The notes beneath the pieces were generated by a model. It did no database searches and was not told the DNA's origin. It worked only from the letters and a program-made list of their open reading frames with translations. A stretch of 62,670 nucleotides of DNA, counting the filler, from Folioceros fuciformis (Eukaryota): assembly GCA_049999805.1 (NCBI GenBank). It is 4 parts of 4 records of this genome, joined end to end, with 100 filler letters (N's around TTAATTAATTAA, not from the genome) between each part and the next. Parts side by side here need not be neighbours in the genome. Positions count along the whole stretch, not along the records: positions 1 to 20,402 come from JBNGIO010006356.1; positions 20,503 to 36,471 come from JBNGIO010006368.1; 2 more parts are not named here. The stretch is one strand, 5' to 3'. The first letter of the stretch is position 1. Every line of letters starts with the position of its first letter. Made by a program: the position numbers and the translations under genes. Of this stretch, positions 8,700 through 57,991 are shown in pieces.

Positions 8700-10365
8700 G
8701 CACTTGAACTCTCCACTAATGCACACGCGCTGCGCACTCGCCTGCCTACGGCCACATTGACCCTGGCATTTGGGTTTGAGTTTCGCTCCCCTGCAGCATG
8801 GCTTAGGCTCTGAATTTGACAGGCACAGGGAGGTGGGCACGGCATGGATGGAAACTGCATGCGGCTTGGACATCAAGCGGCCCTCTCCATTGCGAGGGTT
8901 TGAGGCTACAAAGCCCATCCCCTCTCTCCGCCCGATGGTTGTTGCGAGGCTTCAGCCATGGACCATTGCTTCTTGGCTAAGAGGTTGGTCACCACTTCTG
9001 TTGGGCCCGGCGTGCTCTCGTTGCAATGGTCTATGCAAAGTGGGGGGTGAGCAGGCAGGAGGTAAGCTAGGTGGTAGCTCGCAGGAGCGGACGCCGGTCC
9101 CAATCTGCCCCGTCTAGATGCTTATGCTCCACTTGGCCATATGCAGCAAGGCTACAAAGCCCGCCAAACCTACAAGCATGGATGATGTGCTCGGCATTCC
9201 CTTACAAGATTTTACAGGACTTTGGACTCAAGAGTATACCTCAAGGGTTTATCGCTCCCAAATTTTTGGTTTGGCTAGCCATAAAGGTGTAGTTCAATTA
9301 GGCCACTTGTTGAACAAGTCAAAGTCCTGTTGGAAGGAGGTGGAGGAGGTTAAGGGAGAGTTTGACTTATCAACTCGGCATTCCAGATCCCTGTTTTCAT
9401 AGTTACAAGAGGGGTTAGATAGTACTGTAAAACAAGCGTTGATGCAACAACCGTCTATAGCCACTGAGGGGTGGTGGGCGTATTCTTTGGATAGCAAGGG
9501 GGAGGAGTCCGAGGTGGAAGAATAGGTGGAAATGTGGAATTGGGTAGGGCGATGTTGGTTTTATCTGCGGCTAACAAAGAGCAAGTGTGGTCTTTTAGTG
9601 TCTTATCGTTTGAAGGGATACTAGATGGTCGAGGCAGAGATGAAGGTGGGGTACGGCTTAGGAATTTGAGGGCAATTACAATCCTCTCTAGATCTACCCG
9701 AGCTAGGTGATGGTGCACACAAGATGAGGTCCCTAGCGTGTCACATGTCTCGGACAAGCCAAGGGTACGGTGTTGGTTTTGCCTTGTAGAGAATTAGACT
9801 TTGGCCCTAAAACCATACCTCTTCAAATGGCCTCAACGTCTAGGGAACAAGGAGGCAAGCCCTCGGTCTTTCTTCAATTTCCCAACATCAGACTTGTACC
9901 TGTGGATGGTGTGGGCGTAGAAAATCAGCCAACGCAAGCCAATGGCCCCCAAGTTGCATCTATCAGTGTGGCAGAAAAGGGAAGCCATCAAGCTTTTGTG
10001 GCTTTCAGGTGGTATACCCCCCAAGGTTAGGCTGATCGTTTGGTGCTTCTTTCAAGTGTGTTTGCCCAACGCGGATAGATGGGATGGTTTATTAGTTGCA
10101 ACAAGTGAGGAGGTGTGTCACCCATGTAGCGCTGGAGCCCCGAATAAAAGCCAGCACATGCTTTTTCATTGTAGTTTTGCTCAAGAGGTATGGAGGGAGA
10201 TTGATAGATGGCTGCAAAGGATCTTTCCTGAAGCTCACCTTAGAGTCACGGAACAAACAACGCTTTATGGGTTAGATAGTGTCTCGTGCAAACTGTTGCT
10301 TAAAACTCAATGGTGGGGCTTGCTATGGTCTACCTACCTTTCCTACCTATGGCTCAATTGGTCTT
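8700..10365 (+). mobile_element. Degenerate L1-like LINE, ORF2 C-terminal region (left part, interrupted by an LTR element)
   Basis: zf-RVT-like motif CHPC...QHMLFHCSFAQEVW at about 10115-10195. Trp-rich fragmented frames upstream with many stops. Boundaries approximate. Confidence 0.65.
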
Positions 10366-13064
10366 TGTTAGAAATGTATGGTTTAACATATATTGTACAT
10401 TACGTTATACCAAGTAGGTTATTTAGTTTAGTTTATTGAAGAGCACTTATGAACGGTTGTAACCGCTTTATAGGTTACTCTTATTTGTGTCTTTCCAACA
10501 TTATCAATGTATGCTTTTGTGTGTAAGCTTTGCGTGTCTCGTGATCCATGAGCATTTTCATGGTATCAGAGCAGGATGATCTGCATCCCTACTCATCGCT
10601 CTTGCCTTTCCATTTATCCTCAATCTTAAAATGGAATTAATCAAGTGGCAGTACGATTTCTTTTAAAGACTGGACAGTGGCTGATGAGGTCGATAGCAAG
10701 ATGCCTTGCAAGGGAGTTTGCAAGCATTCATCTGTGGACAACCTGAGTGGCAAGCATGATAAGGTGAAGACTCAAGCTACTCTGAGGGACGTGGATTTCC
10801 AGGAGGCTTTTAAGGGCCTCTACTTCAAGCAGAATATTCCACAAGTCAAGCAAGTTGAGAGGGTTTGCTTTCTACAACAATTCATTGATTCCTTCCCTCT
10901 AGAGTTCTTATCAGCCTGTGTCTCCACTTGCGTTAAGTAGCTTCAACAAGTCAGAAAAATTGTCACTAGTTCCTATTCAAGAGGAGCATTGTATGTCATC
11001 CCCTACCTGTTGTGCTCAGGCCGATTTGTTTACTGCTGCCTTCAATAGCTAGAATGCCAGGTTGGTTGAATTGTCCAGCAAGATAGACAACGCCACAGTC
11101 AGACTTGATAGGCTAGAGAAAACCGAAGAGTTAGAAAAATTCACATCCGTTTTTCAAGAGTTAGAGATCAAGAGACATGCCAAGAAAATTAGAGAGATTC
11201 GACAGCAACTCAGGTCTAATGTTCCTATCCCACAATACTCATCTTGATTTCCAATAGTAATGGCTGGAACAGGGTTAGATGGGTCTGACCGACTCCATGA
11301 GAAGGATCGGTTGACTCCTTCCAACTATGACAACTAGAGTTTTCATATTCGCTGTATTCTTGAAGAGAAGTCACTCATGGATTTGGTGGACGGCGCCAAT
11401 CCGCAGAGAATTGCTGGTCAATCGTCAAGGCCAGCAACACCAAGAGGAACAGTACCCACCTGGATAGCAAAGCAAGCAGAGGAGTGGCAGTCAAAGGACA
11501 GTAAGGCACACTCAATCCTTCAGTGTCTTCAGTGTCCCAAGACGTGATTCCTCACATCAAGCTGACAAGTACATCAAATGAAGCATGAACACTGTTGGGT
11601 GATACTTATGAATCCAAGGATATGATGACAGAAGTTGCAGCAACCTTACATTTCCAGACACTCCGCATGAAGGAGACAAATTCTGTTGAGAGCCATGTCT
11701 CGAGGTTTCGTGTAGCCAAAGCCAAGTTGGCATCTTGTGGAGTTATTGTGCCTGAGAACAGGGCAGCAATTCAACTCCTCGCGTTACTGCCACCAAGTTA
11801 TGAGCAATTTAGTGCCAGTCAACAAGCAATTGCAATAAAAGTCTCGGCAACCTCTACAACACCTGCTACTTCCAACCTGATTGTACATAAGCTGGTTGGT
11901 GCATTTCTTTATGTTGAAGCCAACAAGAAGTACATGCTGAAACCAGGTTCGTCTCTGAATAAAGGAGACACTACCCTCTTCAGTTGGAGAGGGCAAGGCA
12001 GAGTTTGTGGCAGGGGAGGACGTGGCCATAGAGGTGCTGGTAGGGGCAGAGGACAAGTGCCCTCTTCATCACCTGATCCTAACTCCACAAAGAAACCAGG
12101 TGTGTGTAATTATTGTGGCAAACATAACCATTGGGTTAAGGATTGTAGGAAGAAGAAGGCTAATGATGCAGCTAAAGGGAAACACTCATCTGAGACACAT
12201 GTAGCCAAAGCGTCCACTCCAGGTTTGTTGGTAATGTGTCTTGCATCTTCCTCACGTGATTCTTATCATTGGTTTCTTGACAGTGGTGCATCTAATCACG
12301 TGTTCTATGAGGAAGGCCTTCATTTCCTACGAACCAACTCCACCTGGTCATGACCATGCCGTTGTCCTAGGTGATAACTCAACTTTGCCAATCAGAGGGT
12401 CTGGAATAGTCCGTGTCACCCTGCAAAATGGTAGACCTTTTGAGTTAGAAAATACTCTTCATGTTCCTCTCCTGACTAAGAATTTAGTTAGTGCAATGGC
12501 CTTGGGAAAAACAGGGTTGTACAGAATTACGTTTGAGGGCATAAAGTGTACCATTTCTCTCTTATAGTCTCCATCCACAGTCCTAGCTCGTGGTTGCCCC
12601 TTGTATGACCTCTATTTGCTAGATTTCTTTATTGATGTTCCTGCTCCTGTAGCCCATGTTGCTGATGCAAAGGCTCCTGTTAGTATAGCCTATCTATGGC
12701 ATTGCAGGCTGGGTCATCCTAATATACAAGCCATGAGACATCTTCTCAAAGAGAAGATGCTAACTAGATTTGTGGAATCGGAGTTACATGATATGGAGTT
12801 GTGTGTAGCTTGTATCTATGGCAAGCAATTTAAATCCCACTTTAGAGGTGGTAAACCTCGCAAGGTTAGTGTTAGAAATGTATGGTTTAACATATATTGT
12901 ACATTACGCTATACCAAGTAGGTTATTTAGTTTAGTTTATTTAAGAGCACTTATGAACGGTTGTAACCACTTTACGGGTTACTCCTATTTGTGTCTTTCC
13001 AACATTATCCATGTATGCTTTTGTGTGTAAGCTTTGCGTGTCTCGTGATCCACGAACATTTTTA
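10366..13064 (+). mobile_element. Copia element A: internally deleted Ty1/Copia LTR retrotransposon
   Basis: 195-bp LTRs at 10366-10560 (TG..CA) and 12870-13064 (TG..TA). 5-bp TSD GTCTT on both sides. PBS TGGTATCAGAGC at 10561. Decayed gag from ATG 11260 with CCHC knuckle, protease DSGAS and WHCRLGHP, then directly the 3' LTR with no integrase core, RT or RNase H. Confidence 0.93.
10699..11247 (+). pseudogene. Extra ORF upstream of gag in Copia A (disrupted)
   Basis: Fragments MPCK...FQEAFKGLYFKQ...FLQQFIDSF and LVELSSKIDNATVRLDRLEK...QELEIK align by eye to the upstream ORF of Copia B. Confidence 0.7.
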
Positions 13065-13069
13065 GTCTT

Positions 13070-13310
13070 CAGTCGAATACGGGGGAAAGGAGACGGAGTC
13101 CCCTAAGGCCTCAATGTGGTGCATTTGGGAGCAGCTATTGATTGCAGGAGAAGGATTTAGAAGGGCACATCGGCAACAATTTAAGCGCAAGGAGTGGAGG
13201 TTGGCTGGTTTTCTAGGTTAAGGAAATGATAGACACTGGAATCACGTGTGCCGTAAGGGACGGTAAGGCCAGGTGGTTCTCTTGGTTCGGAGGAGGTCAA
13301 TGTTCTCTCA
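13070..13310 (+). mobile_element. LINE 3' coding remnant (right part, resuming after Copia A)
   Basis: Continues after the TSD. KRKEWRLAGFL...WNHVC matches the LINE-like fragment near 54050-54120 (KRKEWRTAEFL...WNHAC). Confidence 0.5.
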
Positions 13311-14074
13311 AAAGGTTGCTTTCATGCAGACGTGGGAGGCTGATGCATATGCAATTCTTGGTTGAGATTCGCCCCAGATATATAGGTTATCTACTATGCA
13401 AATGAGGGTTGAAGATTGGGCTTCTCTCCCTAGATGGTAGAGGATTCTTTGCATCTTTGAAGGTGTTGTGCGTGCATCACCGGCTGTTGGGCACACAAGG
13501 TACATGCATCCCGCGCTCCAGTTTAGCCCGGCCTTCAACTACAACAAGAAAACAGGGGAAAAAGGAAATTCTGTCCATGCCACACAGACATGCCAGCAGC
13601 ACTCACGTGTGCTGTGGCGCACTTCGGTGCAAATACAAATCAAAAGGGCTGCCCTCCACGGGCTNNNNNNNNNNNNNNNNNNNNNNNNNNNNNNNNNNNN
13701 NNNNNNNNNNNNNNNNNNNNNNNNNNNNNNNNNNNNNNNNNNNNNNNNNNNNNNNNNNNNNNNNTGTTAGAAAAATAAGTCCTATTTAATATACATTGTG
13801 CTAGTATTAGTTAGGGCACCCTTTAAAGAATTAGGGCACTCTTCAAAGGCGGTTATAACTGCCAAGACTATATATGTGTTCATGTGTTGTACTTGTTTAA
13901 TTCACTTTCTTTTCTTCTTGCAAGGATGTTGTTTTCATATATTGCTATATTGTGTACATGGTATCAGAGCCATATACCTGTTCTTTATTTAATTATGCAG
14001 TTGTCTGCAACTTCATAGCAATGTTTTCATTGTTATTATTTGGCTTTTAGTCATTGCTATGAAAAATTTATAAG

Positions 14075-14596
14075 ATGCCTCGCAAATCTCAGGTTAAGCA
14101 ATCTCAATGGTCTAATTTTGAGAGATTATTGGGTCCCAGAGATTATGACTCTCTTGGGCGACCCAATTTCATAGATGAATTTCAGCAGTTATATTTCAAG
14201 AAACATTTGACACCTTCTGAGGAGCAGTCTAGGCTTCATTTCTTGAAATCATTTGTAGATTTCTACATTACTGATAACCCTGAGATAATATCTTCAAGCA
14301 AACAATCTGCATCTGTTTCTAATTCTTTGCCTTTTAATGTTCATGCTAAATCTCATCAAGATGGTGGTGCCAATATTGAAGTTCTTTTAAATTCAGTTTT
14401 GAACTTAAAGAGTGCACTTCTTGAAATTTCATGTAAACTGTATAATCTGGCTGAAAGATAAGAGCGTTTGGAGAAAGCTCGAGAGTCAGATCAGATTGTA
14501 GCTGTTTCACAAGAGCTTGAGGTTAAGCAGCAGTCTAAAGATATTCAATCCCTAAAGGAGCAAATGGCACTTTTAGGGGTAACTAAATCTTCTTGA
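14075..14596 (+). CDS. Extra ORF upstream of gag in Copia B, about 173 codons with one in-frame TAA at 14459
   Basis: ATG 14075. The frame continues past the TAA into ERLEKARESDQIVAVSQELEVKQQSKDIQSLKEQMALL and ends at TGA 14594-14596, just before the gag ATG at 14620. Confidence 0.7.
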
Positions 14597-14619
14597 GGCA
14601 TAAATAAGAACAGTGTATC

Positions 14620-17600
14620 ATGTCGACAGATGCGTCTGATCGACTGTTGGAGAAGGATAGACTCACCTCCTCCAATTATGATCACTGGAGTTTTAGAGTC
14701 AAAACTATTTTGGAAGATAAACAATTGATGGATATTGTTGATGGGACAAATCCAGAGCGTGTGGCCGGCAAGCCTTCAGGTGTTATGTCACCTGGAGGCA
14801 GTACTCCTGTTAACTGGACTCACAAGGAGGATGACCTTTGGCATAAGTCAACAAAGAGGCTAAGGCAATTTTGGTTTCAACTATATCGCCAGAGATGATA
14901 CCACACATTAAGCTTGCCAGACTTTCAAGCGAAATCTGGTCAATGTTTGTTGAAACATATGAATCCAAGGACGTCATGTCAGAAGTTGCTGCAACTTTGC
15001 ATTTTCAGAATCTCCGTATGAAGGAGACTGATTCAGTTGAGAGTCACATAGCCAAATTTAGGGCAGCAAGAGCCAAATTGGCAGCATGTGGTACTATTAT
15101 CTCTGAATCTAAAGCAGCAATTCAGCTGTTGGCCTCTTTACCTCCTAGTTATGAACAGTGGAGTATAAGCCAACAATCAGCAGCAGTAATTACTCCAGCT
15201 ACAGCTACACAGCCTGCAACCTCTTCCCTTACAGTTCAGAAGCTGGTTGGTGCTCTCCTGCAAGCAGAGACCAACAGGAAGATTATGAACAAGGGTGGTT
15301 CAAGCAATTCTCACAAACAGAGTGATGTAGCTCTCTTCTCTGGTCGTGGTAGAGGCCGCGGTAGAGCTCGAGGACGTGGGCGAGGATATTTTGGTAGAGG
15401 CAGAGGACAAACGTCTAATGCTGATCAAAATTCCAACAACTCACAACAAGGCAAGAAACCTGGAGTATGTAATTATTGCAGTAAGCCTGGTCACTGGATC
15501 AGAGACTGTAGAAAGAAAAAGGCTGATGAATCTGGCAGGGGAAAACAAACTTCAGAGACACATATTGCTAGGACTTCTACTCCTGGCCTATTAGTAATGT
15601 GTCTTACCTCTGTTTCAAAAGATGAGAATTTGTGGTTTCTTGATAGTGGAGCCTCCAACCATATGTGTGCTTCACGCAAGGCTTTTGTTACATACCAGCC
15701 TGTTCCTAGTCATCATGCAGTGGTGTTAGGAGATAATTCGAATATACCCATTAAAGGGATTGGTTCAGTATCAGTTATCCTGCAAAATGGGAATTCGTGG
15801 GAGTTAGAGAATACTCTTCATGTTCCAGCCTTAAAGGGATAAGTACTATGGCACTTGGGAAAACAGGCCTTTATAAGATTGCTTTCGAAGGTTTAGAGTG
15901 TGCAATTACCAGAGTTGATGCCCCTACTTGTGTGGTAGCAAGGGGAACGCCACTATATGATCTCTATCTTTTAGATTTTGTATCAGCCCCTTCACGTCCT
16001 ACAGTTCATGTAGCTTCAGCAAAGTCTTCAAAGTCTGTACAAGCTTTTCAGTGGCATTGCCGCTTGGGTCATCCCAATATTCAAGCCATGCGTAGGTTAT
16101 TAAAGGAGAAAATGGTGACAGGATTTACAGAAGCAGAATTACCTGACTTAGAACTTTGTGTAGCTTGTGTTCATGGCAAGCAATTTAAATCACACTTTGG
16201 TTCTGGTAAACCTAGGAAGGCCACAGAGGTATTAGATCTCGTTCACATTGACATCTGTGGGCCTATGTCAGTACCTAGCTGGGGAGGTGCTCGTTATTTT
16301 GTGGTATTTGAGGATGACAGAACTCATTTTACAGTCACTGAGCTTTTGAAGCTTAAGAGTGATGTTTTTGATAGCTTTAAACGCTATCTAGCTTATGCTG
16401 AACGTCAGACGGGTTTTAAACTTAAATGTATCCGCTCCGACAATGGGAAGGAGTATCTGTCCACAGCATTTCAAGAGTTCTGTCAGGCACGTGGAATCAC
16501 TAGGCAAGTTACTATTCCATACCATTCAGATATGAATGGTCGTGCTGAAAGGCGTCATCGGACTATTCAGGATACAGCTAGAGCTATGCTTTTCCAGGGG
16601 AGATTACCAGTGAAATTTTGGGCAGAAGCTGTACAAGCTGCTACTTACTTACAGAATCGGACAGCTGTGTCTTCATTGAAAGGTTGTACACCTTTTGAAG
16701 CCTGGACTGGAGTGAAGCCTGATGTTTCTTATCTTCGCATTCTTGGGTGTCCTGCATATGCTCATATTCCTGATAAACTTCGTCGTAAGTTTGACTTCAA
16801 GTCTAAGAGACATATTTTTATTGGGTATACTGCTGGCATTCACGGCTATAAGTTGTTTAACCCACTCACCAGGAAAGTTACTCATGCTCGCACAGTTGTG
16901 TTTGATGAGCGTAAGGTTATGGAGCCTCCTCCTACAACTGAAGTTGCTCCTACGCCCGATCTTTCGGCTGATCCTCTTGCTTCTCCTCCTGATGCTGATC
17001 CTTCTGACTTGTCCACTATGGATTATGTTGAGTTTCCAGCTGATGATGCTTCCTTTCCTTCTGCGGAATCCATTCCCCTACCCATTCCACAGGATATGAA
17101 TCCTCTTCCTCTGGATGATGGTGATGTTGTGCCTACAATTGATGCTGCAGATCCTGGCACACAGGTTCTACGTTTTGATCCTGTTGAGGAGTCTGCAAAT
17201 GAACCTGTTGAGCAGTCTGGAGATGATCTTACTGAGGATTCTGGAGATGATCCTGTTGAGTATGTTTTGCCTCCTCCTGCGCCCGAGCCTGGCCCTCGAC
17301 GTTCTGCACGTGTTCATCGTTCCCGTGATCAGTGGCTGGAACCTCCTTACAGCAGCGCTTCTTTGAGTTCCTTGACAGATTTACCTTCACATTCTGCTCA
17401 AGTAACAGTTAATCCTGGCTATGAACCTCAAAGTTATCTAGAAGCTATTTCAGGTCCTGATGCTGTTCACTGGAAAGCTGCTATCAAATCGGAATATGAC
17501 TCCTTGGTTTCAAATCATACCTGGGAGCTTTGCAGACCCCCTCAGGGGAGGAAGATTGTGACCTCTAAGTGGGTCTTCAAACTCAAATATCGGGCTGATG

Positions 17601-19021
17601 GTTCCATTGCACGCTATAAGGCCCGGCTCGTTGCACGGGGCTTTTCTCAAGTCCCTGGCCTGGACTACCACGACACTTTTTCACCTGTTGTGAAGGCACA
17701 GTCTCTTCGTGTATTGTTTGCTTTATCTGCATTTTTCTCACTCATCATCCACCAGATGGATGTTAAAACGACGTTCCTTCATGGACAGTTAGAGGAAGAC
17801 ATCTATATGCAACAGCCTGAAGGTCATGAGGTTGCTGGCAAACTAGATTGGGTTTGCCACCTTCTTAAAACTCTCTACGGCCTCAAGCAGAGTCCACGAG
17901 CCTGGTATCAGTGTATTGATGAATACTTACTTGATTTGGGCTTTGTTACGTCCACTGCAGATTCTAATGTGTATACTTATCGTGATAAGTCTTCTTTTGT
18001 TATACTCGCCCTTTACGTTGACGACTGTATTCTTCTTGGCACTGACCTGTCAAGTATACAGAAAGTTAAAGTGCAGCTGTCAGAAAGATTTGATATGGTT
18101 GATATTGGTGAGCTGTCTTACTGTTTGGGTACGCAGTTGTTACGCATTCCAGATACTGGCACTCTCATTATTCATCAAGAAAAATACATATTTGACATGC
18201 TGTACAAGTACAAGCTACTTGATGCAAAGCCTGCTGCGACCCCTATGGAGGCTGGCTGCAAATTGTTGAAGAACCAGTCTCCTCAAACTTCTACTGAGGT
18301 AGAAGAGATGAAGTCCGTACCATATTCACAAGCTGTTGGTTCGTTGATCTTCTGTTCCAATCATACAAGGCCGGACATTTCCCTTCCAGTCAGCATGACG
18401 TCACAGTTTTTAAAGGAGCCTGGACAGGTTCACTGGTCTGCAGCAAAACGCATTTTGAGATATCTTAAAGGGACGAGCAAGTATGGAATTCATTACACAA
18501 GACAAGCTTTTGATGGACAGCCACTTACTCTTGTGGGTTACTGTGATGCTGATTGGGCATCAGATCCCGACACGCGCAAGTCTGTGTCGTCTTATGCTTT
18601 TATGCTTGCTGGTGGTGTGGTGACCTGGTCATCAAAGAAACAACCAATTGTCTCCTTGTCATCGACTGAGGCAGAGTATGCTGCTCTCACACAAGCAACT
18701 AAGGAGGGAATATGGCTGCGTCGGTTGCTAAAAGACTTGGGACAAGAGCAGACACAACCCACTAAGATTTTCTGTGATAACCAGTCAGCCCTTACACTTG
18801 CACAAAATCCAGTCTTTCATGCCCGTACCAAGCATGTTGAAGTCCATCATCATTTTATCAGAGATGCAGTGGCAACCAAGCAAATTGAGCTGGAGTATAT
18901 TTCAACAGATTCCAATCCAGCTGATATTTTAACCAAAGCTTTGGGGAGGGTGAAACATTACCTATTTCGAGAGTCTCTTGGAGTCTTGGACTCCACTCAA
19001 ACAGTTTCTTCTAGTATCTAA
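14620..19021 (+). CDS. Copia B gag-pol polyprotein, broken into three frames
   Basis: ORFs 14620-14898, 14871-15842 and 15797-19021 together carry gag, an RG-rich tract, CCHC knuckle, protease, integrase, RT and RNase H motifs. Confidence 0.92.
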
Positions 19022-20502
19022 ATCTCACTTTGCAGTCACTGTTCAGCTAGGCTAAGCACCTGTGTCAGAGTCAGAAGATGACTCACTTACAAATCTACTT
19101 CTTTCCTTCAGTGTTGTTAGGTCATCAGCATGTCTCGAACCACAACAACAGTGGGAGAAAAATTCAGAGATGCTAGATGAGATGATACTGACCGTAATAG
19201 GAGATGAAGTTTCCGTCCAGTCCTCCCCACCTGTAGCATCTGTTCCTCACCATTGCAATCTCCGTCACACAGCATATAGAACCCAGCGGAGTCTCAGGAT
19301 CGTCAATTCCATTTCCATCTGATATCAGCTTGACTGTCCTTGTTGGATGTCCTATGGGAAGGATGTAGAGTCTCGGCTTGAAGTCTACAGGCACCAACAC
19401 ATGCTTCCGTCCACTTCGACAGATGGTAGAGCACAGGGCAGAAGGGTGGACTGTCAGGACACACGCATACCTTGGAGGTTGTGGCTGGATGAACGCGTGT
19501 GTTCTGCGGAGCTGATGCTGGGGTTTCTGAAGGCGCTGAGATCCCGAGGTGTGTTGCCATATGCTTGGCGATTTGAGGCTCATCTGTGTCTGAGATGTAG
19601 ATCGAAGCACGCTTGGAACCCTCTGCGGGAGTATTCGCCATCTTCCTGGGCTTCTGCAGCTGAGCAGTGTCGTCCTCGTAGTGTTGCTTTCTCAAGTGGA
19701 GCGTGTGGTGTGTAACGAGCGTAACGGGATATGTGCGCTTAACGGGATGTGTTAGGCTGTGTGTACTTGCCGTTCTGGAGTTTACGAGGAGCGTATTTAT
19801 GTTATTAATTACTAGACAATGAGTGGGAGTGTTAGAAAAATAAGTCCTATTTAATATACATTGTGCTAGTATTAGTTAGGGCACCCTTTAAAGAATTAGG
19901 GCACTCTTCAAAGGCGGTTATAACTGCCAAGACTATATATGTGTTCATGTGTTGTACTTTGTTTAATTCACTTCCTTTTCTTCTTGCAAGGATGTTGTTT
20001 TCATATATTGCTATATTGTGTACAGCTGCCATCGCTAGTCTTGAGGTCTTGGCCGCCATCATGAGCTAGCACCTCCCTCTCAGTGTGATGAGGCCACCAC
20101 CTCGCGTGATCCTTTGGCTGTTGCAGTAGCGGGCTGCATGATGTAGCCCACGAGCCACCTGCCGGGTTTGCAACCCTGGTTCTAGAAATGACCTAAATGG
20201 CCTAATAACCTATCCTGATAATGTCAGCTAAATAGCTTCATATGGGGTAAGCTAATTAATAGCTATTTCATAATGGCCAAAATCACATATATAGCCAGCC
20301 TACCTCTGGGCTACTATATATATTCCTGTAAAACAAGTCTGGTGCCACGACAGCTGTGGTGCGTGCATCTCCGGCTGTTGAGCACACAAGGTACGTGCAT
20401 CCNNNNNNNNNNNNNNNNNNNNNNNNNNNNNNNNNNNNNNNNNNNNTTAATTAATTAANNNNNNNNNNNNNNNNNNNNNNNNNNNNNNNNNNNNNNNNNN
20501 NN

Positions 20503-23500
20503 ATAACAACAAGTGGACTACTCCCTAGCCTACTCTCTGATTGGTTTTCATGGTATCAGAGCCATGTTACCACGCCTGAAGGGACTAATCAATCATGGCG
20601 AGGCGCGGAGCCCCCTGTAGGGACAAGCACAAATCAGAACCCTTCAATGACTACTCAAGTGGAGGACCTTCATTTGTGCTTCAGGCACCCTTTCTAGCAG
20701 ATGTTGTGCCAATCCCCACAGCGCCTAGCCGCCCGCGCCCTCAGCAGCATCATCCCCTTGCCCAAGGTCACCACATAGGATTTTACCCACAAATCCTTGC
20801 AAGGAATCGAAGCACCTTGGGGCGACCTGTAAAGAGACAGTGGGATTCAGACCATTGTTCCTGCAAAGGGCTCAGGCAAATCCTGGACAGATCTCAGTCA
20901 ATTCTCACTCGCGTGGAAGGACTGCTGTTCAGCCTGTTGTCATATCAAAGATCCTCCAGGATTTCATCCCGGCCTCCCGATCCTAAGCCAGCGTGCGCCA
21001 GGGCCCCCTGCACAGAAGTCCAGCAGAGCATAGACGACGTCGCCAATTTCCTATGCAATCTCAACATGCAGGCTTTTGGAAAGGGGAATCAACGCACCGA
21101 CTCACGATCGGATGCCTCCGACTGCTAAATTCTTCCGCTGCACGGGAGTAGGAGCAGCGGCAGGCCAAGGCGCACCTCAGATCTGAAAAGTCGTCTTGTG
21201 CTCCGCTCCCGCTGCAAGACTCTTTGAGTATTCACGCGGATTGGTCCACCTGTTCACTTGACTAAGGACTGGCGGTTGGAAGCACCTCTCCAAGATGCCG
21301 ATTCGCACTCTGCTGAGTCAATTGGTTACTTAGGGTTTGCTATTATTGCTATCCATTGAAGATAGGTAGATCACGCTAATAAAGGCGAGACCCTTTTTCC
21401 TAGCACGAGCGGAGCAAGAAGAAACGTGGATACAGCACGAGTAGGGGCTAGTACCCACTAGCACCTCCTCCAGCTTTACCCACACAACTCCCCCCCTCGA
21501 CACTATCCCCGCTTCAACTGGGTTAATTCCAGTCGTTCATGTTTACCACCGCATAGCTGAATGCCCTGATCAGTGGATTTCAGAACCTTACCCTACAGCC
21601 AAGCCCTCCCTGCGTAATGGCTGTATCTGTTAGTAACCCATCTTTTACCTCTGAACTCAAAGAGAGGGATAGGTTTAAGGGGCAAGGTTACACTGTTTGG
21701 CGAGTCAGGATGAAAGCCACCTTGTTGGCTAGAGGCGTTTCGGCCACTGTCGATGGTTCTTACCTCAAGCCTGACCCCAATTCAACACCAACCCCCACGG
21801 CGGACGAGGTCGCCAGATGGGACCAGTATAATGCCATCGCAGTTGCCCTGATTATTGGCGGACTGGATGCTGACCTAGTCCCAGATATCGAGTATCTCAC
21901 CTCCGCACACGACATTTGGAGTCAGCTGGAAAGAACTTACAAAGTACAGAATTTGATGACTCTATGTGCTGTGAGGCAAGAATTCTACTCACTCAGGATG
22001 AAGGAGGGGGAGAAAGTTATGTCCCACGTCAGCAAGTTTAGGCACCTGCGTGCACAACTTATGGCGATGACAGGAGACAAAATGTCGGAGGTGGACGCTA
22101 TCGCCCAGTTGCTGACCAGTCTGCCTGCCTCTTACCAAACCTTCGTCACAAGCCAGAATGGCCCAATCCGAGCTGCTCACACCGCTGCATCAGCCGGGCA
22201 ACTAGTGACAATCACCTTGGAAGAGGTGATTGGTGCTTTGTTCCAAGAAGAAAAGAGCCGTACCTTCTCTCTCCTCTGCTGTTCCTAAGAATAGAGGGGA
22301 CAAGGTGTTAGCAGCCAATTTTCGTAAAGGAAAATGGAAACCCAGAGGTACAGAAATGCAAGGCCAGAGAGGGGAGTCTTCCAACCCAGCCAAGAGACCT
22401 GGCAGCTGCAATTGGTGTGGCCTACCTGGCCATTGGGCAAGAGAATGCCGCAAAAGGAAGGCAGGTGAGCCCCAGAGACAACCAAAACCAGCTGCAAACA
22501 TTGCTGTGAAGCCAAAGTCAGGAGACACTAAAGCTCCTGTTAAGATACTTACTGTATGCCTCTCTAGCATCCGGAGTGATGACTGTTCCTGGTACCTGGA
22601 CTCTGGGGCTACGACACATATCTGCAAGAAGAGGGAGGCTCTTCAAGACCCTTGACCTAGAGAAGAAAGGAGGTCAGGTGTTTTTGGCAGATGAACAAAG
22701 CAAGACCAGCTTACAGATTGAAGGCAAGGGTACCTGTATCTTCAGGCTTCATGATGGCACAGATCTTGTGCTAGAGGACGTCATTTTTGTCCCGGGCTTG
22801 GCCAAGAACCTCATGTCATTGAGTCAGCTTCTACGTCTCAGGACATTTTACATGCATGCAGACTCCAAGCATTGCTGCTTTTACAGACAGTCCTCTCCCC
22901 ATTCGTGTGCTTTTGAAGGACTCCCAGAAAGCAACCTATATAGACTCAACATTACTTGCCTCCTACCTGAAGCACATAGTGAAATCACTCACTCAACCTC
23001 AGCCTCAACATTAAGTCAAGAACAGCAAGCACTCCTATGGCATGCCCGCTTGGGGCACATTAATAAGTCAAAGCTGATAAACATGTCAGTCATGGAGTGT
23101 CATCGAGAACCACTCCCTAAGTGTTTTAAATCATTACCTGTTTGTGAGTCTTGCATACTTGCTAAGCAGAAGGAATCCCCATTTCCTAACTCCCCTGTGC
23201 ACAGAGCCACAGAAGTCCTTGAGTTAATCCATGCGGACATATCGGGCAAAGTCCATGAACCCTCCCTCGGAGGCTCCTGCTATTTCCTAACACTCACTGA
23301 TGATTACAGCCGCTATACATGGACTTTTCCAATGCATGTGAAAAGTGACACCTACAGCTACTTCAAGGAGTGGCTCGTTGTAGCTCAGCGACAATCTGGA
23401 AAACTACTGAAGATACTCAGGACGGACAATGGCACAGAGTTTGTCAACTCACAGTTTGACGAACTACTTATGGAATCCGGCATCTTACGTCAACTTACCG

Positions 23501-26500
23501 TGCCCTACACACCACAGCAGAATGGTGTGTCAGAGCAGAAAAACCAGACATTATTAGCAATGACAAGGAGCATGCTACTGTGGGCAGGATTACCTCAGGG
23601 TTACTGGGCTGAGGCTATTGTAACCGCCACATACATATTAAACCGGGTGCTTACTAGTTCCGTTCCCAATAAGACTCCATTTGAGGTTTTTTGGAACAGA
23701 AAACCCAGCCTTTTACACCTCAGAGTCTTTGGTTCACGGGCCTATGCCCTTATACCCGCAGAAAAACGGCATAAGCTGGACAACCGTGCTGAGGACTTCA
23801 TTCTGGTTGGTTACAGTGAGCAGGCTAAAGCTTACAAGCTATACAACCCTGACACACACAATACGATTGTGGCCAGGAGTGTTACCTTCATCGAACCCAA
23901 TGCTCCCGTCTTGGCCGTCCCCACTTCTGACCATGATGTTCAGTCTCCGCCAGATGATTCTCCTGCCGTCTTTCCCTTGGATGACACTGAACCTGAATCC
24001 ATAGAACCGACCCCTGCTGTGTTAGTCCCACCACCAGTCGCTCCACAGCCACAGCCACCAGATCCAGACCTTCCCCCTGCAATCATTCAGCCAGACCAGG
24101 ATCCACCTGTTTTGGATGCAGAGGGGGATATAGGGCCGGATGCTGACCTTATACCTGATCCGGAGCCCCCAAACCAGGTTCCTCCCGCACCTGCTAATCC
24201 CGTGCCTGACTCCCCCAACCTCCGTCGGTCCACCCGTCATAGGCCTCCACCATCAGAGTGGTGCGAACCCCCTTATGCCTCCACAGATTTCCGTACCCAT
24301 ACAGCGTCAAGCCCTAGCAAACCATCTTTTCCAGAAGAACCTGTCACATTATTTCAGGCATTCAACGGCCCTGAAAGTGAGCAATGGAAGCTAGCTGTGG
24401 AGGATGAATATCAGTCTTTAATAAAAAACAATACCTGGGTTCTCGTTGATCTCCCATCAGGCAGGAAAGCCATCTCCTGCAAATGGACATTCAAATTGAA
24501 GCTTAATGCAAAAGGGGAGGTGGCTAGGTTCAAAGCGCGCCTGGTCGCTAGGGGCTTTACACAAGTGGAAGGTCTGGATTATCAGGAAACGTTCTCACCT
24601 GTGGTTCGCAGCCAATCTATACGTTTGCTTCTTGCTTATGCCACAGAGTTTGATTTAGATCTTCAGCAGATGGATGTCTGCACAGCCTTCTTATATGGTG
24701 CCCTCGACGAAGAACTTTATATGCTCCAGCCTGAGGGCTATGAGGATCCTACACATTCACACAAGGTTCTCAGATTACTTAAGTGCATATACGGGCTGAA
24801 GCAGAGTGGGAGAGTATGGTATCTCACCATGCATGAGTATCTCTTGAGTATTGGCTTTACCCAAAATACTGCAGACACCAACGTATATCGGTTGACGAAA
24901 GGACCCCTACTTGTATTGCTGGCCCTGTATGTGGACGACCTGATACTCGCCACAAACGATCAAGCCCTGTTAGCAGAGGTTAAGAAGGACCTACACAGCA
25001 GGTTTGACATCGGGGAGTTAAAGTTCTGCTTGGGAATTCAGCTCATACGTGTTCGTGAAGCAGGCCTTATGTATATTCACCAATACAAATACATTAACGA
25101 GATCTTAAGAAAGTTCAACTTAGATCAAGCTCGACCCGCTACTACACCATATGCTTCAGGCACCAAGCTCAATCGTCAGCAAAGCCCACAGACACCTGAA
25201 GAACTTAAGGATATGGAGGGCATACCTTTCAGGCACGCAGTCGGCAATTTACTTTTTGTCGCAAACTGGACCAGGCCGGACATTCAGTATTCTGTAAGCA
25301 CTGTATCCCAATTCCTCGAAAACCCTAGTAGGACACACTGGACGGCAGTGAAGAGAATTTTTCGTTATCTTAAAGGAACACTGCACTACGGGCTTATGTA
25401 CAGAAGGAGTGGTGAGCAACAGGTCACCTTATCCGGTTATTCCGACGTTGACTGGGCTTCAAACCCAGATTCAAGACGTAGCCTTTCTTCATACTGCTTC
25501 TTGCTTGCATCTGCCGCTGTTACATGGAGCAGCAAAAAGCAGGTGACAGTAGCGCTTAGTTCCACCGAGGCAGAATACAAATCACTAACAGAGGCGGCAA
25601 AGGAGGCGGAATGGGAACGAGGCTTCCTAGCATGTCTAGGGCATGAACAGCTCAACCCAACTCTTATCCTCTGCGACAACACTTCAGCCTTGGAACTGGT
25701 TTCGAAGCCTACCTTTCACGCCCAAACTAAGCATATAGAAATACACCACCACTACATACGTGATGTGGTTGCTCGCGGCGTGATTAAACTGGAATACACA
25801 AGCTCAGACACCAACACAGCTGATATCCTGACGAAAGGGTTACCCAAGCATGCACACTACTTACATATGCAGGGGCTGGGCCTCAGTGATTTTTCTGCCT
25901 ATGTCGACCCCTGACGCTCATCGCTGGTGACTGAACGAGATGCGGACCTACCCCGGCAGCACCTTCAGCTCACCAGGCGAGATCAGCCGTTTTTACCATC
26001 TCGGCAGCCTGCACATGTACAGGGCAGATGGTTAGAGTGGCCATGCGCAAAAGGGGACGAGTAGGTCGATAAAGACAGATCAAAGAGCGTAGACCACAGC
26101 GGCGCAGCAAGACCGCACAACGTTAGAGTAACTAATAAGGCACGCACCGGGCGGATGAAGCCTTAGCGCCCGATCCAATCGCCCGAGTTGCGGCGCCTCC
26201 CTCCTACGCCAACTAGCACCTTCAGACACACGGGCCATGCATGCTGTGTGAAAAAAAAAAAAAAAAAAAAGAGGACAGTGGTGCTGGGCTGTCTTGGCTG
26301 CAGACACGGGCTCTACGTCGACGGACGATAGCGCCTGATCTTCGTTCCATGCCGCACCGGACACCCACAACCCCGGATCACAAAGCCTCCAGCTTAGCGC
26401 ACATCGACCCGACCAGAAATGCAGCCATACCGATCCCGCGCGCGTCGTGTGGCCACGAGTGTTCTGTCCTTTTTTTTTTCCCCGTCGCCCGTCTTTAGTT

Positions 26501-26714
26501 TAAGAGGGGGTGTTCGCGTATATTCCCGCATACAGCCGTATATAGGCATATAAATAAACATAAATACGAAGCGACACATTAGTCATGAGGCCGTTGGGTA
26601 GGTGGTCGAAACGTGGGTATTAAAGATGTTTTTGTACATAAGTTTAATTAATTGTCTTATTGCTTGATAACAACGAGTGGACTACTCCCTAGCCTACTCT
26701 CTGATTGGTTTTCA
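20503..26714 (+). mobile_element. Copia element D: Ty1/Copia retrotransposon, apparently nested in Copia C
   Basis: Partial 5' LTR 20503-20550 next to a gap matches the end of the 3' LTR 26511-26714 (TG..CA). PBS at 20551, PPT AAGAGGGGG at about 26502. gag from 21617 and pol to 25914 with RTDNGTEF, LYVDD and ADILTK. Two frameshifts near 22270 and 22650. Confidence 0.93.
20595..21128 (+). CDS. Extra ORF upstream of gag in Copia D (177 aa, unknown function)
   Basis: ATG-initiated open frame starting about 30 bp after the PBS, with helical segments LRQILDRSQSILTRVEGLL and VQQSIDDVANFLCNL. No clear similarity to the A/B ORF. Confidence 0.5.
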   Translation: MARRGAPCRDKHKSEPFNDYSSGGPSFVLQAPFLADVVPIPTAPSRPRPQQHHPLAQGHHIGFYPQILARNRSTLGRPVKRQWDSDHCSCKGLRQILDRSQSILTRVEGLLFSLLSYQRSSRISSRPPDPKPACARAPCTEVQQSIDDVANFLCNLNMQAFGKGNQRTDSRSDASDC

Positions 26715-29700
26715 GGCCATCTCACAGCAAGCAACGAAGAGCAATATGCAAGCTGATGAGATTGCTAACCTGAAGGAGCAGTTGGCACTGCTCAAATCCC
26801 CTCAACCCTAGAGTGGGCATTACAACTCCAGCATCGTTCATGGTTGCAGTAGCGGATCAGACTTCAGATCGCCTGCAGGACAAGGACAGGCTTTCGCCTC
26901 ACAACTACGATGCATGGAGTTTTAGGGTACATTGTATCCTTGAAGATAAAGGTCTCATGGATATTGTAGAGGGCACTATTCCGAAAAGAATTACAGGAGA
27001 GGATTCAGGCAAGAAGGATACGCAAGGAAATGTCATCCCTTGGACAACGATAGAAGACGTTGCTTGGCATAAACTGGATAGGAAGGCCAAAACTATATTA
27101 GTTGCTTCTGTTTCCCAAGAGATGATCCCCCATATCAAGTTGACGAAGCTATCTGCAGAAATGTGGACGCTGCTATCAGAAACATATGAATCAAAAGACA
27201 TAATGTCAGAGGTAGCAGCAACGCAGCATTTCCAGTCACTGAAGATGAGGGAGAATGATTCAGTTGAGAGTCATCTAGCCAAGTTTCGTGCAGCAAGGGC
27301 AAAACTGGCTTCCTGTGGTGTTATCATTTCTGAATCAAGAGCAGCAGTGCAACTGTTAGCCTCATTGCCTCCTAGCTATGAACAGTGGAGTTCCAGCCAA
27401 CAGGCTGCCGCTGTTCAAGTACCTGCAACATCAACTACACCTGCCACTTCTAGCCTTACAGTTCAGAAGTTAGTCGGTGCCTTGCTACAGGCTGAAGCCA
27501 GTCGGAAAATAAGCAAGGGTGGATCCAGTTCTTCTCACAGACAGAGTGATACTGCACTCTTTACCGGTCGTGGCCGAGGACGAGGTGGATTCGGACGAGG
27601 TCGAGGACAAGCGTTCTCATCTGGTTCTGGCTCCACACTGTTTGCAGGGAAGAAACCAGGCGTCTGTAATTATTGCAATAAGCCTGGGCATTGGATCAAG
27701 GATTGCAGGAAACGAAAAACAGATGAAGGAGGCAGATCAAAACCAGGTGAAGCAAATGTAACAGGAGTTGCACGCTCGTCCACACCTGGCTTCTTGGTTA
27801 CATGTCTCACCTCTGTATCCAAGAATTCACATAGGTGGTTCCTGGATAGTGGAGCATCTAACCACATGTGTTCCCAACGAAAGTACTTTGCTACCTATCA
27901 GACATCACCATAGTGTCAAGGTCATGCAGTGGTACTTGGAGATAACTCTCAGCTTGCAATTAAGGGATCTAGGAGTATCACAGTTCATTTGCACAATGGA
28001 GACTTGCTGCAACTTGAGAATACTTTGCATGTACCAGCTTTGACTAAAAACTTGGTCAGTACTATGGTCTTATGCAGAGAAGGAAGGTACAGAGTTACCT
28101 TTGAAGGGACGGAGTGTGTTGTGTCACATCTATCCACTTCCATGGTGGTTGCTCGTGGTAAACCACTGTATGATTTGTACCTACTTGACTTCTTTTCAGT
28201 GACTCCTCTGCAACAGCCCACACAGCAAATGTTAGACCGTCACTTAGCAATGCATTTCGGTGGCATTGCCGCTTGGGCCATCCCAACTTACAAGCTATGC
28301 GGAGGCTACTTAAGGAGAATATGGTCACAGGGTTCAGTGAAACAGACTTACCGGCCTTGGAGCTGTGTGTGGCATGTGTCCATGGTAAGCAATTCAAATC
28401 TCACTTTGGCAGTGAGAGACCACGGAAAGCTTCAGATACCCTTGATTTGGTGCACACTGACATATGTGGACCAATGTCTACTCCCTCATGGGGAGGTGCA
28501 CGATACTTTGTAGTATTTGAAGATGATCGTACTCACTTCACTGTATATGATTTGTTGAAGCATAAGAGTCAAGTGTTTGACAGTTTCAAAAAATATCTTG
28601 CCTATGCTGAGAGACAGACAGGATACAAGCTGAAATGCATTCGTTCTGATAACGGCAAGGAGTACCTGTCACAAGCATTTCAGGAGTTTTGTCAGGAGCG
28701 TGGCATTACTCATCAGCTTACTATCCCATATCACTCCGATATGAATGGTCGGGCAGAGAGGAGACATCGAACAATACAGGATGCAGCCAGATCACTACTG
28801 TTCCAGGGGAGGTTGTCAATCAAATTCTGGGCAGAAGCTGTGCAGGTTGCAACTTACCTTCAAAACCGGATTGCTGTTTCTTCTCTCCCTGGTGGAACAC
28901 CATTTGAAGCTTGGACGGGAGCTAAGCCAGATGTTTCACATCTTTGTACCTTCGGCAGTATTGCGTATGCACATGTTCTTGACAAGCTAAGACGTAAGTT
29001 CGACTATAAATCGAAACGACATATCTTTATTGGGTACACTTCAGGCATTCATGGTTATAAATTGTTCGAACCTGAGTCACGTAGAGTGGTGTATGCCCGT
29101 ACTATCGTGTTTGATGAGAGAATGGTCTTACAAACTTCTGATCCTGGTTTGGAAGATGTCGCTGATGTAATAGATGCTGTAGAAGATCCTATACAACATC
29201 CCTCAGATGTGTCGGATGTTGCTGAATTTCCTGTGTCAGATCCATCTTATGTAGATGTCTTACCAGTTGTTGATGCAGAGGATGGCCCCGAGACCCCTGA
29301 TCCAGAGCCTTATGTTGATGATGGTCATGTCCCACAGCCACCTGGTCCCCTTCTCGCTCCCGATATTTCTGACACAGAGTCTGTTCCTCAACAACATGAT
29401 CTAGAGTCAGATCCTGAAGTCGAGGGTGTCGATCCTTCGTTTGAAGATGAACTTGGTCAGTATGAGGATGAGCCTATTATACCTGAGCCTGCTCCAGCAC
29501 CTGAAGTCCCCCTTCCTCGTCGTTCAGCTCAAGTACATCATCCTCCTGATGATTGGGTTGAACGTCCATATCGTAGTATTGATTGGCGATCCAGTCATGA
29601 TGACAGACCAGTTCCTCGTCCTCTTGGTTCTGGTCCTGGTGAGTTTGTAGTTGATGTCGTTCATGGAGTGAACCTTACGTCAACCCTGATCACGAACCAC

Positions 29701-30080
29701 AAACCTATCAAGAGGCTATCACATGTCCTGAATCCATGTTCTAGAAGGCCGCCATTCAATCTGAAAATGACTCTTTGATTGCCAACAATACTTGGGAGTT
29801 ATGCCCTCCGCCTCAGGGGAGAAAGATAGTTACCTCCAAGTGGGTCTTCAAGTTGAAGTATAAGGCTGATGGCACAATCTCCCGGTATAAGGCAAGACTT
29901 GTTGCTCGTGGATTTTCTCAAGTTCCAGGTTTGGACTATCATGAGACATTCTCTCCCGTGGTGAAATCACAGTCACTGTGTGTACTCTTCTCCATGTCAG
30001 CATTCTTTGGCCTGTTCATCCACTAGATGGACGTTAAAACTGCATTCTTGCATGGCAAACTGGAAGAAGAACTGCCTGGG
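26715..30080 (+). mobile_element. Copia element C: relative of A and B, 5' end lost at the D insertion or gap, truncated inside RT
   Basis: Tail of the upstream ORF (DEIANLKEQLALL, stop 26811), gag ATG 26840, CCHC knuckle, DSGAS and an integrase closely similar to B. RT start WVFKLK...KARLVARG breaks off after FLHGKLEE. Several stops and frameshifts. Confidence 0.9.
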
Positions 30081-34680: not shown

Positions 34681-36570
34681 GGTGTTTCCATTGGACCAAG
34701 AGGAGTTGACGACCAAGCCGCATGCTAGGGGCCACTCAATATTCTTTGCATGTGAGGTTGCAAGCGGAAGGTCGGTTAGACCAAGAGCTTAGATGCTGCA
34801 AATGGTGCATGAGAACACTACACCTCTGGATCTCCTTGAACTTAGCTAATCTTAAGGGCACGCAAAGAAGAAGAGCAAGGGGAAAGGAAAGGAGATAATG
34901 AACACTAAAGGTCAAGGACCGGGAAAGGACTGGAAGAACAGCCTGGGGATCAGCCTTGGGAGCTATATCATTTTGAGACATTCTCGAACAGGGCTTTGCT
35001 GCGAGGACACACTGACAAGCAAGAAGTGCCAAATATGGCGATGCACAACGAGGAGAGAGGAGATGATATTATTGTCCCCATGGCAAAACGACTAGAACCT
35101 CCACGGGTTCAAGGTTAGGAATTGTCAGTCGGTAGAATGGAAACTTGCTCAGAGTGAAGGCATGTACTTGAGTGCGACTTTGAAACTGCTCTACACGTCC
35201 CTAAGCGCGTATTTTGTAAAACCCTAAAGGACATTATGTGTTTGCCATGACCAGACCCCATGAAAACATTTGTTTCAAATACGGGGAAGGCTTGTGGTCG
35301 ACCATGACTAACACTATATGTGCGATATGGCATATTTTTGGGTTGTAAAGAGATGACCTCAACAACAACCCTATACCCTAAAACCCGCGGCATTCAAGGG
35401 GCTAGTACGCTTTCCGCATATGACCCTCTTCAAGTTGTTCCTTTTCATTCTCCTTGTCCTAATTCTCTTCTTTCAATAAAATATAAATTAAATATTAATG
35501 TTTGCACAAGTTCCACATTAATACTATCCTTTCATATTTCAATTCTTTTGTGAACGATATACTTCAAAATATAGAGCACTTTAAGATTATCTGAATGGAA
35601 AACAGAGAAGTCTTACCTTATTATGACTTGATATATAGTTGTTCTTACAAAAGTAAGAATAGAGAAGACGTGATGAAGTTCAAGCTAAAAAGTATTTTGT
35701 ATTCCAATGGATCAAAAGCTAAGCATTTGTTTAAATACATCAATACACATATTATATTTTATATGCAATGCTCATATATATCTAGATAATTATTTTAGGA
35801 TTTGATTGATTATAAATCTATATAAAATAATAGTATATATATATAAATATGTAAGATTAATATCAAATAAAAGGATATGTTTAAATGAGTCCTAGAAAAT
35901 GTATGTCGAGTGTATGAAAGTTGAGAGTTTTTTTTTTAAGGTTTTTTTGGGGTTTTGACCACTTTAAATAGTGTTTGGCTTTGATAACCCACAACCACCT
36001 ACCTGGTTGCGAGTACTGTCACTCACCCTACCCCGAACCTTACCTCTCTACATTGGCAGGAGTGCGGGCTTGCAACTCCATCTGTGGGGGTGGGGTTTGG
36101 TGCGGGCAGCAGGGAAGCTAACTCCGACTGCCTGCCGTGGAACCCTACCTAGATTCGTAGGACATGCGTGAGAGAGCAGCATTAAGAAGGCAGAGTTCTT
36201 GTGGGGGTGAATCCGTCCTTCCAGTCCACGTGTGTTTTCAACTGAGTAGGTCTGCAGTGCGGTGCTCCTGGCACTGGCGGAGGAAATTTGTTCGTGACCA
36301 GCTCCCTAGACAGAATGTTGTTGCTCTTTCATTTCCTTCGAATGGCCAGTTTGTTTCTCACGCTTTGCGCCTTGTTTTCTGATCCTCAGGAATACTTGAC
36401 ACGCCTTCAAGCTGGACGCTTGTTTCTATGCCCAGCTATCTCGATGATCCTTGCTTACCTTCCTTATGGTGNNNNNNNNNNNNNNNNNNNNNNNNNNNNN
36501 NNNNNNNNNNNNNNNTTAATTAATTAANNNNNNNNNNNNNNNNNNNNNNNNNNNNNNNNNNNNNNNNNNN

Positions 36571-57766: not shown

Positions 57767-57991
57767 AGTGTGTCATAACCATTTACCTATTGCCTTACCA
57801 TGGTAGTCTAAGATCATGTGATATGTGTAAGGATCTTTTTTTTTTCAATATTACACTACTAATTATTTTAGGCATAATGTAATGACAACCANNNNNNNNN
57901 NNNNNNNNNNNNNNNNNNNNNNNNNNNNNNNNNNNTTAATTAATTAANNNNNNNNNNNNNNNNNNNNNNNNNNNNNNNNNNNNNNNNNNNN

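Follow-up and report, generated by a model that had tools for sequence, protein, structure and literature searches.

A candidate selected reading frame between the primer-binding site and gag in Copia retrotransposons of Folioceros fuciformis

As a rule, Copia retrotransposons are taken to have one gene, gag-pol, and their leaders are masked or passed over by annotation pipelines. The question of whether such a leader can hold a gene of its own is raised by a stretch of DNA from Folioceros fuciformis (Eukaryota; NCBI GenBank assembly GCA_049999805.1), which comprises 62,670 nucleotides (nt) in four parts joined end to end and is referred to here, over its whole length, as the window. Three related Ty1/copia elements within it, termed A, B and C, have an extra sense open reading frame (ORF) between their primer-binding site (PBS) and gag, which is defined here as ORF0. 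A selected 5' gene without relatives would be a new element-encoded factor, and its position before gag raises the question of how Gag gets translated. The explanation favoured overall, and held with somewhat better than even confidence, is that ORF0 is a selected coding cistron of one Copia lineage, represented by the families A, B and C, that lies between the PBS and gag.

Position and coding signature of ORF0

ORF0 was found in all three copies of the lineage within the window (in element C as a tail only). It possesses an ATG and a stop that are not shared with gag, and 12–28 nt of spacer precede the gag ATG. In the most complete copy, element B, it occupies positions 14075–14596 on the + strand and contains 173 sense codons and one in-frame stop (14459–14461); the final stop ends at 14596 and is followed by a spacer of 23 nt and the gag ATG at 14620. 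The ORF0 of element A (10701–11247, + strand) is broken: it runs from an ATG at 10701 to a TGA that ends at 11247, with the gag ATG following at 11260 after a spacer of 12 nt, and its degraded middle contains stops and a frame change that split it into an N-terminal part (10701–10940) and a C-terminal part (11053–11247) in another frame. Element C retains 31 sense codons and a stop (26715–26811, + strand), the stop ending at 26811, 28 nt of spacer ahead of the gag ATG at 26840; only this tail is present because a further Copia element, E, is nested inside ORF0 and the rest lies beyond a gap, such that the PBS and the ATG are lost. In A and B, ORF0 starts 105–129 nt past an exact copy of the PBS 12-mer TGGTATCAGAGC, and the two ATGs share the context AAGATGCCT.GCAA. 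A preliminary description of this DNA had placed an ORF ending 12–28 bp before the gag ATG in each of the three elements, with which the spacers of 12, 23 and 28 nt agree. The eight peptides that it quoted were likewise all located on the + strand: FQEAFKGLYFK (10797–10829), FLQQFID (10869–10889) and LVELSSKIDN (11062–11091) in A; FIDEFQQLYFK (14168–14200), FLKSFVD (14240–14260), LLEISCKLYN (14417–14446) and IQSLKEQMALL (14543–14575) in B; and IANLKEQLALL (26761–26793) in C.

It had also been proposed that A and B align at the protein level despite the divergence of their DNA, and this proved correct. Indeed, the nucleotide identity of the two ORF0 copies is 0.48, whilst a tblastn search of the whole window with the B product matched A in two frames (joint E 8e-10), the aligned stretches being 75 residues long at 31% identity and 66 residues long at 32%. 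In the reciprocal search, the best non-self match of each A piece was the corresponding site of B (E 1.6e-4 and 2.5e-8). The tail of element C also matched its corresponding site in B, at an E value of 0.065 that alone is not significant. Beyond A–C, tblastn of the B product found no further ORF0 copy in the window. At the amino acid level ORF0 is 29–32% identical between A and B, compared with 63% for gag, and the long terminal repeats (LTRs) of the two elements give no alignment.

The evidence for coding comes from the distribution of these differences. Between A and B, identity at codon positions 1, 2 and 3 of ORF0 is 0.37, 0.62 and 0.38 in the N-terminal half (73 codons) and 0.39, 0.68 and 0.32 in the C-terminal half (84 codons), although the alignment was guided by amino acids, which inflates the value at position 2 and tells against taking it at face value, since shuffles give 0.46–0.47 there and only the excess counts. 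The corresponding values for gag are 0.70, 0.80 and 0.46. Because of this inflation a codon-shuffle control was made, in which none of 1000 realigned shuffles of A reached the observed score in either half (z 8.2 and 11.1). The summed BLOSUM62 score of an ungapped block of 75 ORF0 codons is +103 in the ORF frame as against -52 and -63 in the others, and the 128-codon open stretch of the B ORF0 was matched in length by none of 2000 leader shuffles. The proportion of synonymous differences (pS) between the two ORF0 copies is 0.78–0.82, which is saturated, and that of non-synonymous differences (pN) is 0.45–0.48, whilst gag has a pN of 0.18–0.24 at similar pS. The NG86 and YN00 methods fail for ORF0 because pS exceeds 0.75, so no true ratio of non-synonymous to synonymous substitution rates (dN/dS, or omega) is obtained, and the maximum-likelihood dS values of 16–18 are meaningless. 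By our own arithmetic, in which the gag NG86 dS of ~2 serves as a floor, the omega of ORF0 would be at most about 0.3–0.4, compared with 0.10–0.14 for gag. As far as two diverged copies allow, these values indicate that ORF0 is protein-coding and under purifying selection roughly two to three times looser than that on gag, and we consider it quite probable that it is a real selected coding gene. The selected accessory protein of the preliminary description is supported to the extent of this coding constraint (codon position 2, saturated pS, unsaturated pN), which is drawn from those two diverged copies.

A number of observations weigh against such a reading. A and B are the sole informative pair and their synonymous sites are saturated; ORF0 is known here from DNA alone; and the window holds no uninterrupted copy, A being in pieces, B carrying a stop and C being cut off. 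In the window, however, A and B are broken in gag and pol as well, which indicates that the breaks reflect the state of the copies or of the assembly and nothing particular to ORF0. In contigs from three of three DNA runs (one sample), the in-frame stop of B at 14459–14461 is a sense codon, and small insertions are found in DNA-run contigs precisely at both gag/pol frame changes of this element. The depth of the B ORF0 in the DNA runs is single-copy-like at a likeness of at least 80%, with no further copy seen there, and a run guessed to be RNA gave one 40-letter piece on reverse transcriptase (RT) and none on ORF0, which is uninformative on expression. The start of ORF0 comes after three or four short upstream ATGs, and the B copy contains seven or eight ATGs. 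Searches with the B product were also negative: there were no matches among 108 candidates in a word-indexed search of 5.8 billion proteins, none at E<=1e-3 when 1.84 billion representatives, covering all lengths, were searched with phmmer, no family in Pfam (at E<=0.1) or in PHROGs, none among PDB sequences at E<=1, no usable match in the ESM Atlas with a 128-residue part, and, by Foldseek of the product model against PDB, none of 56 listed matches at E<=1e-3.

Predicted product, lineage and likeness to known systems

A coiled coil is a reasonable prediction for the ORF0 product. Over its ~173 residues this is predicted to comprise an N-terminal part with poorly defined helices, a linker that is disordered and a heptad-spaced C-terminal helix of ~70 residues. 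The AlphaFold2 single-sequence model of the B product has low overall confidence (predicted local distance difference test, pLDDT, 57.6) and places short helices in residues 9–76, disorder in 77–96 and two long helices at 97–127 and 131–167, where pLDDT reaches up to 90; the break between the long helices coincides with the X that marks the in-frame stop. The contrast in hydrophobicity at heptad positions a and d is 0.8 at B residues 99–128 and 0.65 in the A tail. The ORF had been described as coiled-coil, and a long helix with a heptad pattern is indeed predicted, but from sequence and with no fold match. A two-copy complex prediction for the 64-residue tail of A scored 0.02 against a mark of 0.32, a result that speaks neither way on self-association. 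By Kyte–Doolittle analysis the B product and the A pieces contain no segment sufficiently hydrophobic for a membrane helix, the maximum of the 19-residue mean being 1.14 in B and 1.10 and -0.15 in the two A pieces. Similarity between ORF0 and gag is not significant (E 0.29). In the MAFFT alignment the N-terminal half of A was set on the C-terminal helix region (SS.DN ... F..F..L.FK against SSKIDN ... F.SVFQELEIK), an odd placement that may reflect an internal repeat in ORF0 or chance.

The studied span contains four Ty1/copia elements (A, B, C and E), all of which have the Copia domain order by Pfam. The closest identity of the element B lineage across RT and RNase H is 53%, among the 120 best listed of 8000 candidates scored. 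Nothing in the protein collection comes close to this lineage, which may, as the preliminary description supposed, be undescribed. Alignment scans for relatives gave no confirmed relative in any set covered: with gag, among 118 pattern matches in metagenome contigs and 65 in viral contigs, and with integrase, among 296 pattern matches in metagenome contigs and 59 in prokaryote contigs. The PBS of A, B and E is the 12-mer TGGTATCAGAGC, which we take to pair with the initiator tRNA-Met at its 3' end; presumably its type is the full-length tRNA-Met 3'-end one, and this would speak against the lineages Bryco and Osser. In these two REXdb lineages the PBS is described as complementary to a half-molecule of tRNA-Met (PMC6317226).

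The background against which ORF0 had been set, that of Copia elements with a single gag-pol ORF, was overstated. Extra ORFs (eORFs) of at least 250 codons have been reported in 582 Ty1/copia elements, where they form 45 mutually dissimilar groups, and a 5'-forward class (eORF-5'F) has been defined, although only the 3' ORF of SIRE is given as typical of a lineage (Neumann et al. 2019; PMC6317226). Additional ORFs at the 5' side (5'aORFs) have been described in Tekay chromoviruses (PMC11728184), and with the Copia eORFs of Neumann et al. they mean that extra ORFs in Copia are not unheard of. At 173 codons, ORF0 falls below the 250-codon cut-off of that survey, which is a survey threshold and not a biological criterion, and the main text of the survey does not split its Copia eORF counts by 5'-forward share (PMC6317226). 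A full-text search found no paper in which a helical 5' ORF of a Copia lineage is described, though the supplementary tables of the same survey may list such cases (PMC6317226). The review of Vicient and Casacuberta deals mainly with 3' ORFs, and describes conserved aORFs without host homologues whose function is unknown (PMC7264820). ORF0 is an orphan member of a feature class that is already known, the additional ORFs of LTR retrotransposons, in a place that is unusual for Copia; nothing is overturned by it, because such ORFs are well documented, mostly with unknown function.

Like eORF-5'F and 5'aORF frames, ORF0 is in sense orientation, lies between the 5' LTR/PBS and gag and, in the copies of the window, is kept within an element group (PMC6317226, PMC11728184), and it shares with them fast evolution, the lack of database homologues and predicted helices with disorder; unlike ORF0, which has 173 codons, belongs to Copia and ends 12–28 nt from gag, the 5'aORFs characterised in these sources are from Ty3/gypsy elements (Tekay, Ogre) and are ~400 amino acids or more in length. 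In the frames of B, D and E, the last two being elements of other Copia lineages, Pfam gave no match to the domains that are known from aORFs (Athila ORF-1 PF03078, plant mobile domain PF10536 and Transposase_28 PF04195). The env-like eORF-3'F of SIRE (Sirevirus) is also an accessory sense ORF in Ty1/copia that is very divergent between families (PMC6317226), but it lies downstream of pol, and no sequence similarity was detected, nor any Pfam match. Small ORFs upstream of gag have been characterised in Drosophila MDG1-group elements (PMC11952523): sORF1 and sORF2 of these Ty3/gypsy elements (412, Stalker2) are likewise in sense orientation, have low dN/dS and are read from the primary transcript of the element, but sORF2, unlike ORF0 with its lack of a hydrophobic segment, is a membrane-anchored FAST-like fusogen of ~70 amino acids with a single transmembrane helix (PMC11952523). 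The MDG1-group elements also belong to another superfamily and another host kingdom. In the cases of LINE-1 ORF1p and the virion-associated protein (P3) of caulimoviruses, the cistron for a small coiled-coil protein sits directly before the main replication or capsid gene of a polycistronic retroelement RNA, and unconventional restart gives access to the cistron downstream; the likeness of ORF0 to these is by analogy only, with no match of sequence or fold.

Relation of ORF0 to gag and competing explanations

If ORF0 is a gene, its relation to gag has to be accounted for. Measured against ORF0, gag of A lies in frame 0, that of B in frame -1 and that of C in frame +1; all three open with an ATG of their own, and their N-terminus (.SDRL.EKDRL...NYD.W) is conserved. 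As the frame relation differs between the three elements, no single readthrough or frameshift signal would serve them all and, judged from the sequence, ORF0 is a cistron separate from gag. The upstream and internal ATGs noted above make leaky scanning to gag unlikely, and simple scanning to either start would be inefficient. ORF0 would then serve as the first long cistron in translation of the full-length element RNA, and gag-pol would be made by ribosomes which, having terminated at the stop of ORF0, restart 12–28 nt downstream; alternatively, gag-pol could be read from a second RNA without ORF0. Every gag ATG has a YAG 2–8 nt before it, which by our estimate is about what chance would give. 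The short and kept distance between stop and ATG fits restart after termination, and coupling of ORF0 and gag by this route is put forward tentatively, at rather less than even confidence. The protein might act in the element's own cycle, self-associating via the long helix and having Gag or the RNA of the element as its binding partner; the preliminary description had suggested particle assembly, targeting or anti-silencing as possible roles. Any one named function would at best be doubtful.

Four other explanations were weighed. ORF0 could be an N-terminal extension of Gag, fused to it via stop-codon readthrough or frameshifting, and two elements look the part: the ORF0 tail of A is in the gag frame with one TGA and four codons between, and in element D, which is unrelated, a frame of 237 codons shares its reading frame with gag, from which one TGA separates it. 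A single recoding event nevertheless misfits A, B and C taken together, given the gag frames of B (-1) and C (+1), each gag starts with its own ATG and conserved N-terminus, and the four relatives examined (of the 120 listed) start at the canonical gag N-terminus, so that such an extension is improbable. That ORF0 is instead a long regulatory upstream ORF, which throttles gag-pol translation and whose peptide is incidental, would be in keeping with its fast evolution (29–32% amino acid identity for the A–B pair, where gag has 63%), its situation immediately 5' of gag with a short spacer, and the want of a recognisable domain. Such a frame should decay evenly, however, whereas identity is 0.62–0.68 at codon position 2 and 0.32–0.38 at position 3, BLOSUM scores are specific to one frame and the heptad pattern is retained in both A and B; this alternative is considered quite improbable.

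Conserved RNA elements occur in the leaders of retroelements, and the region could be a non-coding leader in which the likeness stems from RNA signals (packaging, dimerisation) or from chance and the frames are accidental. The stops and frame changes of the window copies would be at home in such a leader, but gag and pol of A and B are equally broken, such that ORF0 is not singled out; nucleotide identity is just 0.48 and concentrated at codon position 2 in one frame, and neither the 1000 codon shuffles nor the 2000 leader shuffles ever reached the observed values. This explanation is already disfavoured and is thought very improbable. The least probable of the four is that one element transduced a fragment of a host gene which was then passively inherited. 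Transduction is documented for plant LTR retrotransposons, but transduced ORFs are typically present in one or few copies (PMC7264820), whereas ORF0 occurs in at least two and probably three families whose gag differs by 27–37% at the protein level; moreover, no similar protein was found among the 1.84 billion representatives or in the word-indexed search, and the window has no other copy.

Other Copia lineages and the setting of the elements

Frames in a comparable place were found in two further lineages of the window. Element D, a third Copia lineage on the - strand (57944–62670), has its PBS at the window edge (62670–62660) and, starting 66 nt past it, a frame of 237 amino acids (62594–61881, - strand) that none of 2000 leader shuffles equalled in length. 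The TGA of this frame is directly followed by the gag-frame ATG in the same reading frame, and ~75 further residues separate that ATG from the canonical gag domain. The product model contains one long helix (residues 135–207; heptad contrast 0.85). A word-indexed search with this product gave no matches among 539 candidates and the ESM Atlas gave none; six PDB matches at E 0.18–0.84 were taken as chance. In element E the frame comprises 177 amino acids (20595–21128, + strand) and starts 33 nt past the PBS, eight of 2000 shuffles being as long; the leader from PBS to gag measures ~1 kb, and ~490 nt of broken frames follow the 177-codon frame. No Pfam family was found in the 5' frame products of D and E at E<=0.1, and comparison of the products was not significant (B with D, E 0.45; D with E, E 8.6).

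The three lineages (A–C, D and E) are 41–43% identical in Pol, and each has a 5' frame of 170–240 codons that starts 33–129 nt past the PBS; in B and D the frame ends in a long predicted heptad helix just before gag. Common descent of the frames of B, D and E is possible though unproven, because ORF0 is already down to ~30% identity between A and B. The 5' cistron might on this basis be an old, shared and very fast-evolving trait of a whole dicistronic Copia clade with gag-pol expressed by stop-restart, to which the spacers of 12–28 nt in A–C and the TGA directly followed by ATG in D would correspond; we regard this as unlikely. Stop-restart expression is known from LINEs, caliciviruses and caulimoviruses and, to our knowledge, not from Copia. 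That three distant Copia lineages within 62 kb share this layout suggests that a 250-codon cut-off under-counts such genes.

Element B extends from 13765 to 20024, with its left end adjoining a gap of 100 N (13665–13764). Its LTRs are 194 and 195 bp long, begin with TGTTAG and end with TGTACA (TG..CA termini), and 193 of 194 aligned bases are identical between the 5' copy (13765–13958, + strand) and the 3' copy (19830–20024), which indicates a young insertion. The exact TGGTATCAGAGC lies directly 3' of the 5' LTR (13959–13970, + strand). Gag, protease, integrase, RT and RNase H are encoded at 14620–19021 (+ strand) in three frames (14620–14898, 14847–15842 and 15848–19021); the gag ORF has Pfam matches to Retrotran_gag_2 (8.1e-18), zf-CCHC and Pol_BBD, and the pol ORF to gag_pre-integrs and rve (residues 38–227) before RVT_2 (residues 556–801, E 1.1e-70). 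When DNA run X3 of the sample was compared with positions 13959–19829 of this element, differences of the types C>T (467) and G>A (472) were counted, with 1–13 of each other type, a pattern that resembles bisulfite-type conversion and could give the methylation state of element B.

Element A is an internally deleted Copia element of 2.7 kb (10366–13064, + strand) flanked by an intact 5-bp target duplication, GTCTT (10361–10365 and 13065–13069). The LTR length is 195 bp, and the 5' LTR (10366–10560, + strand) is identical to the 3' LTR (12870–13064) at 184 of 194 aligned bases and adjoins an exact TGGTATCAGAGC (10561–10572, + strand). Gag, protease and the start of integrase follow in broken frames (11260–12869, + strand), and the internal deletion fuses the integrase start to the 3' LTR at 12870, with GTTAG microhomology at the junction. 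The 5' LTR starts within a 165-residue frame at 9942–10439 (+ strand) that has a zf-RVT domain (E 2.4e-9) and is the remnant of a non-LTR retrotransposon.

Elements C and E form a nested pair. Element E (20503–26714, + strand), which belongs to another Copia lineage with a Pol 43% identical to that of B, has an exact TGGTATCAGAGC as PBS at 20551–20562, its gag ATG at 21617 and pol to 25914. Its 5' LTR is mostly lost in the gap at 20403–20502, and a repeat at 20503–20557 matches 26667–26721. The 3' LTR ends at 26714 and the sequence of C resumes right after it at 26715, which places the insertion of E within the ORF0 of C. Downstream, C has an intact gag of 357 amino acids and a partial pol (26840–30074, + strand). 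The gaps at 20403–20502, 36472–36571 and 57892–57991 each consist of 44 N, TTAATTAATTAA and 44 N, and that at 13665–13764 of 100 N; all four resemble scaffold joins, and because two of them lie at LTR edges, the order of the pieces around B, E and C may be unreliable. No tRNA gene was found in the window. It also contains an intronless gene for a PPR-E-DYW editing factor and one for a 3-beta-HSD/reticulon fusion, and the genome is of land-plant type.

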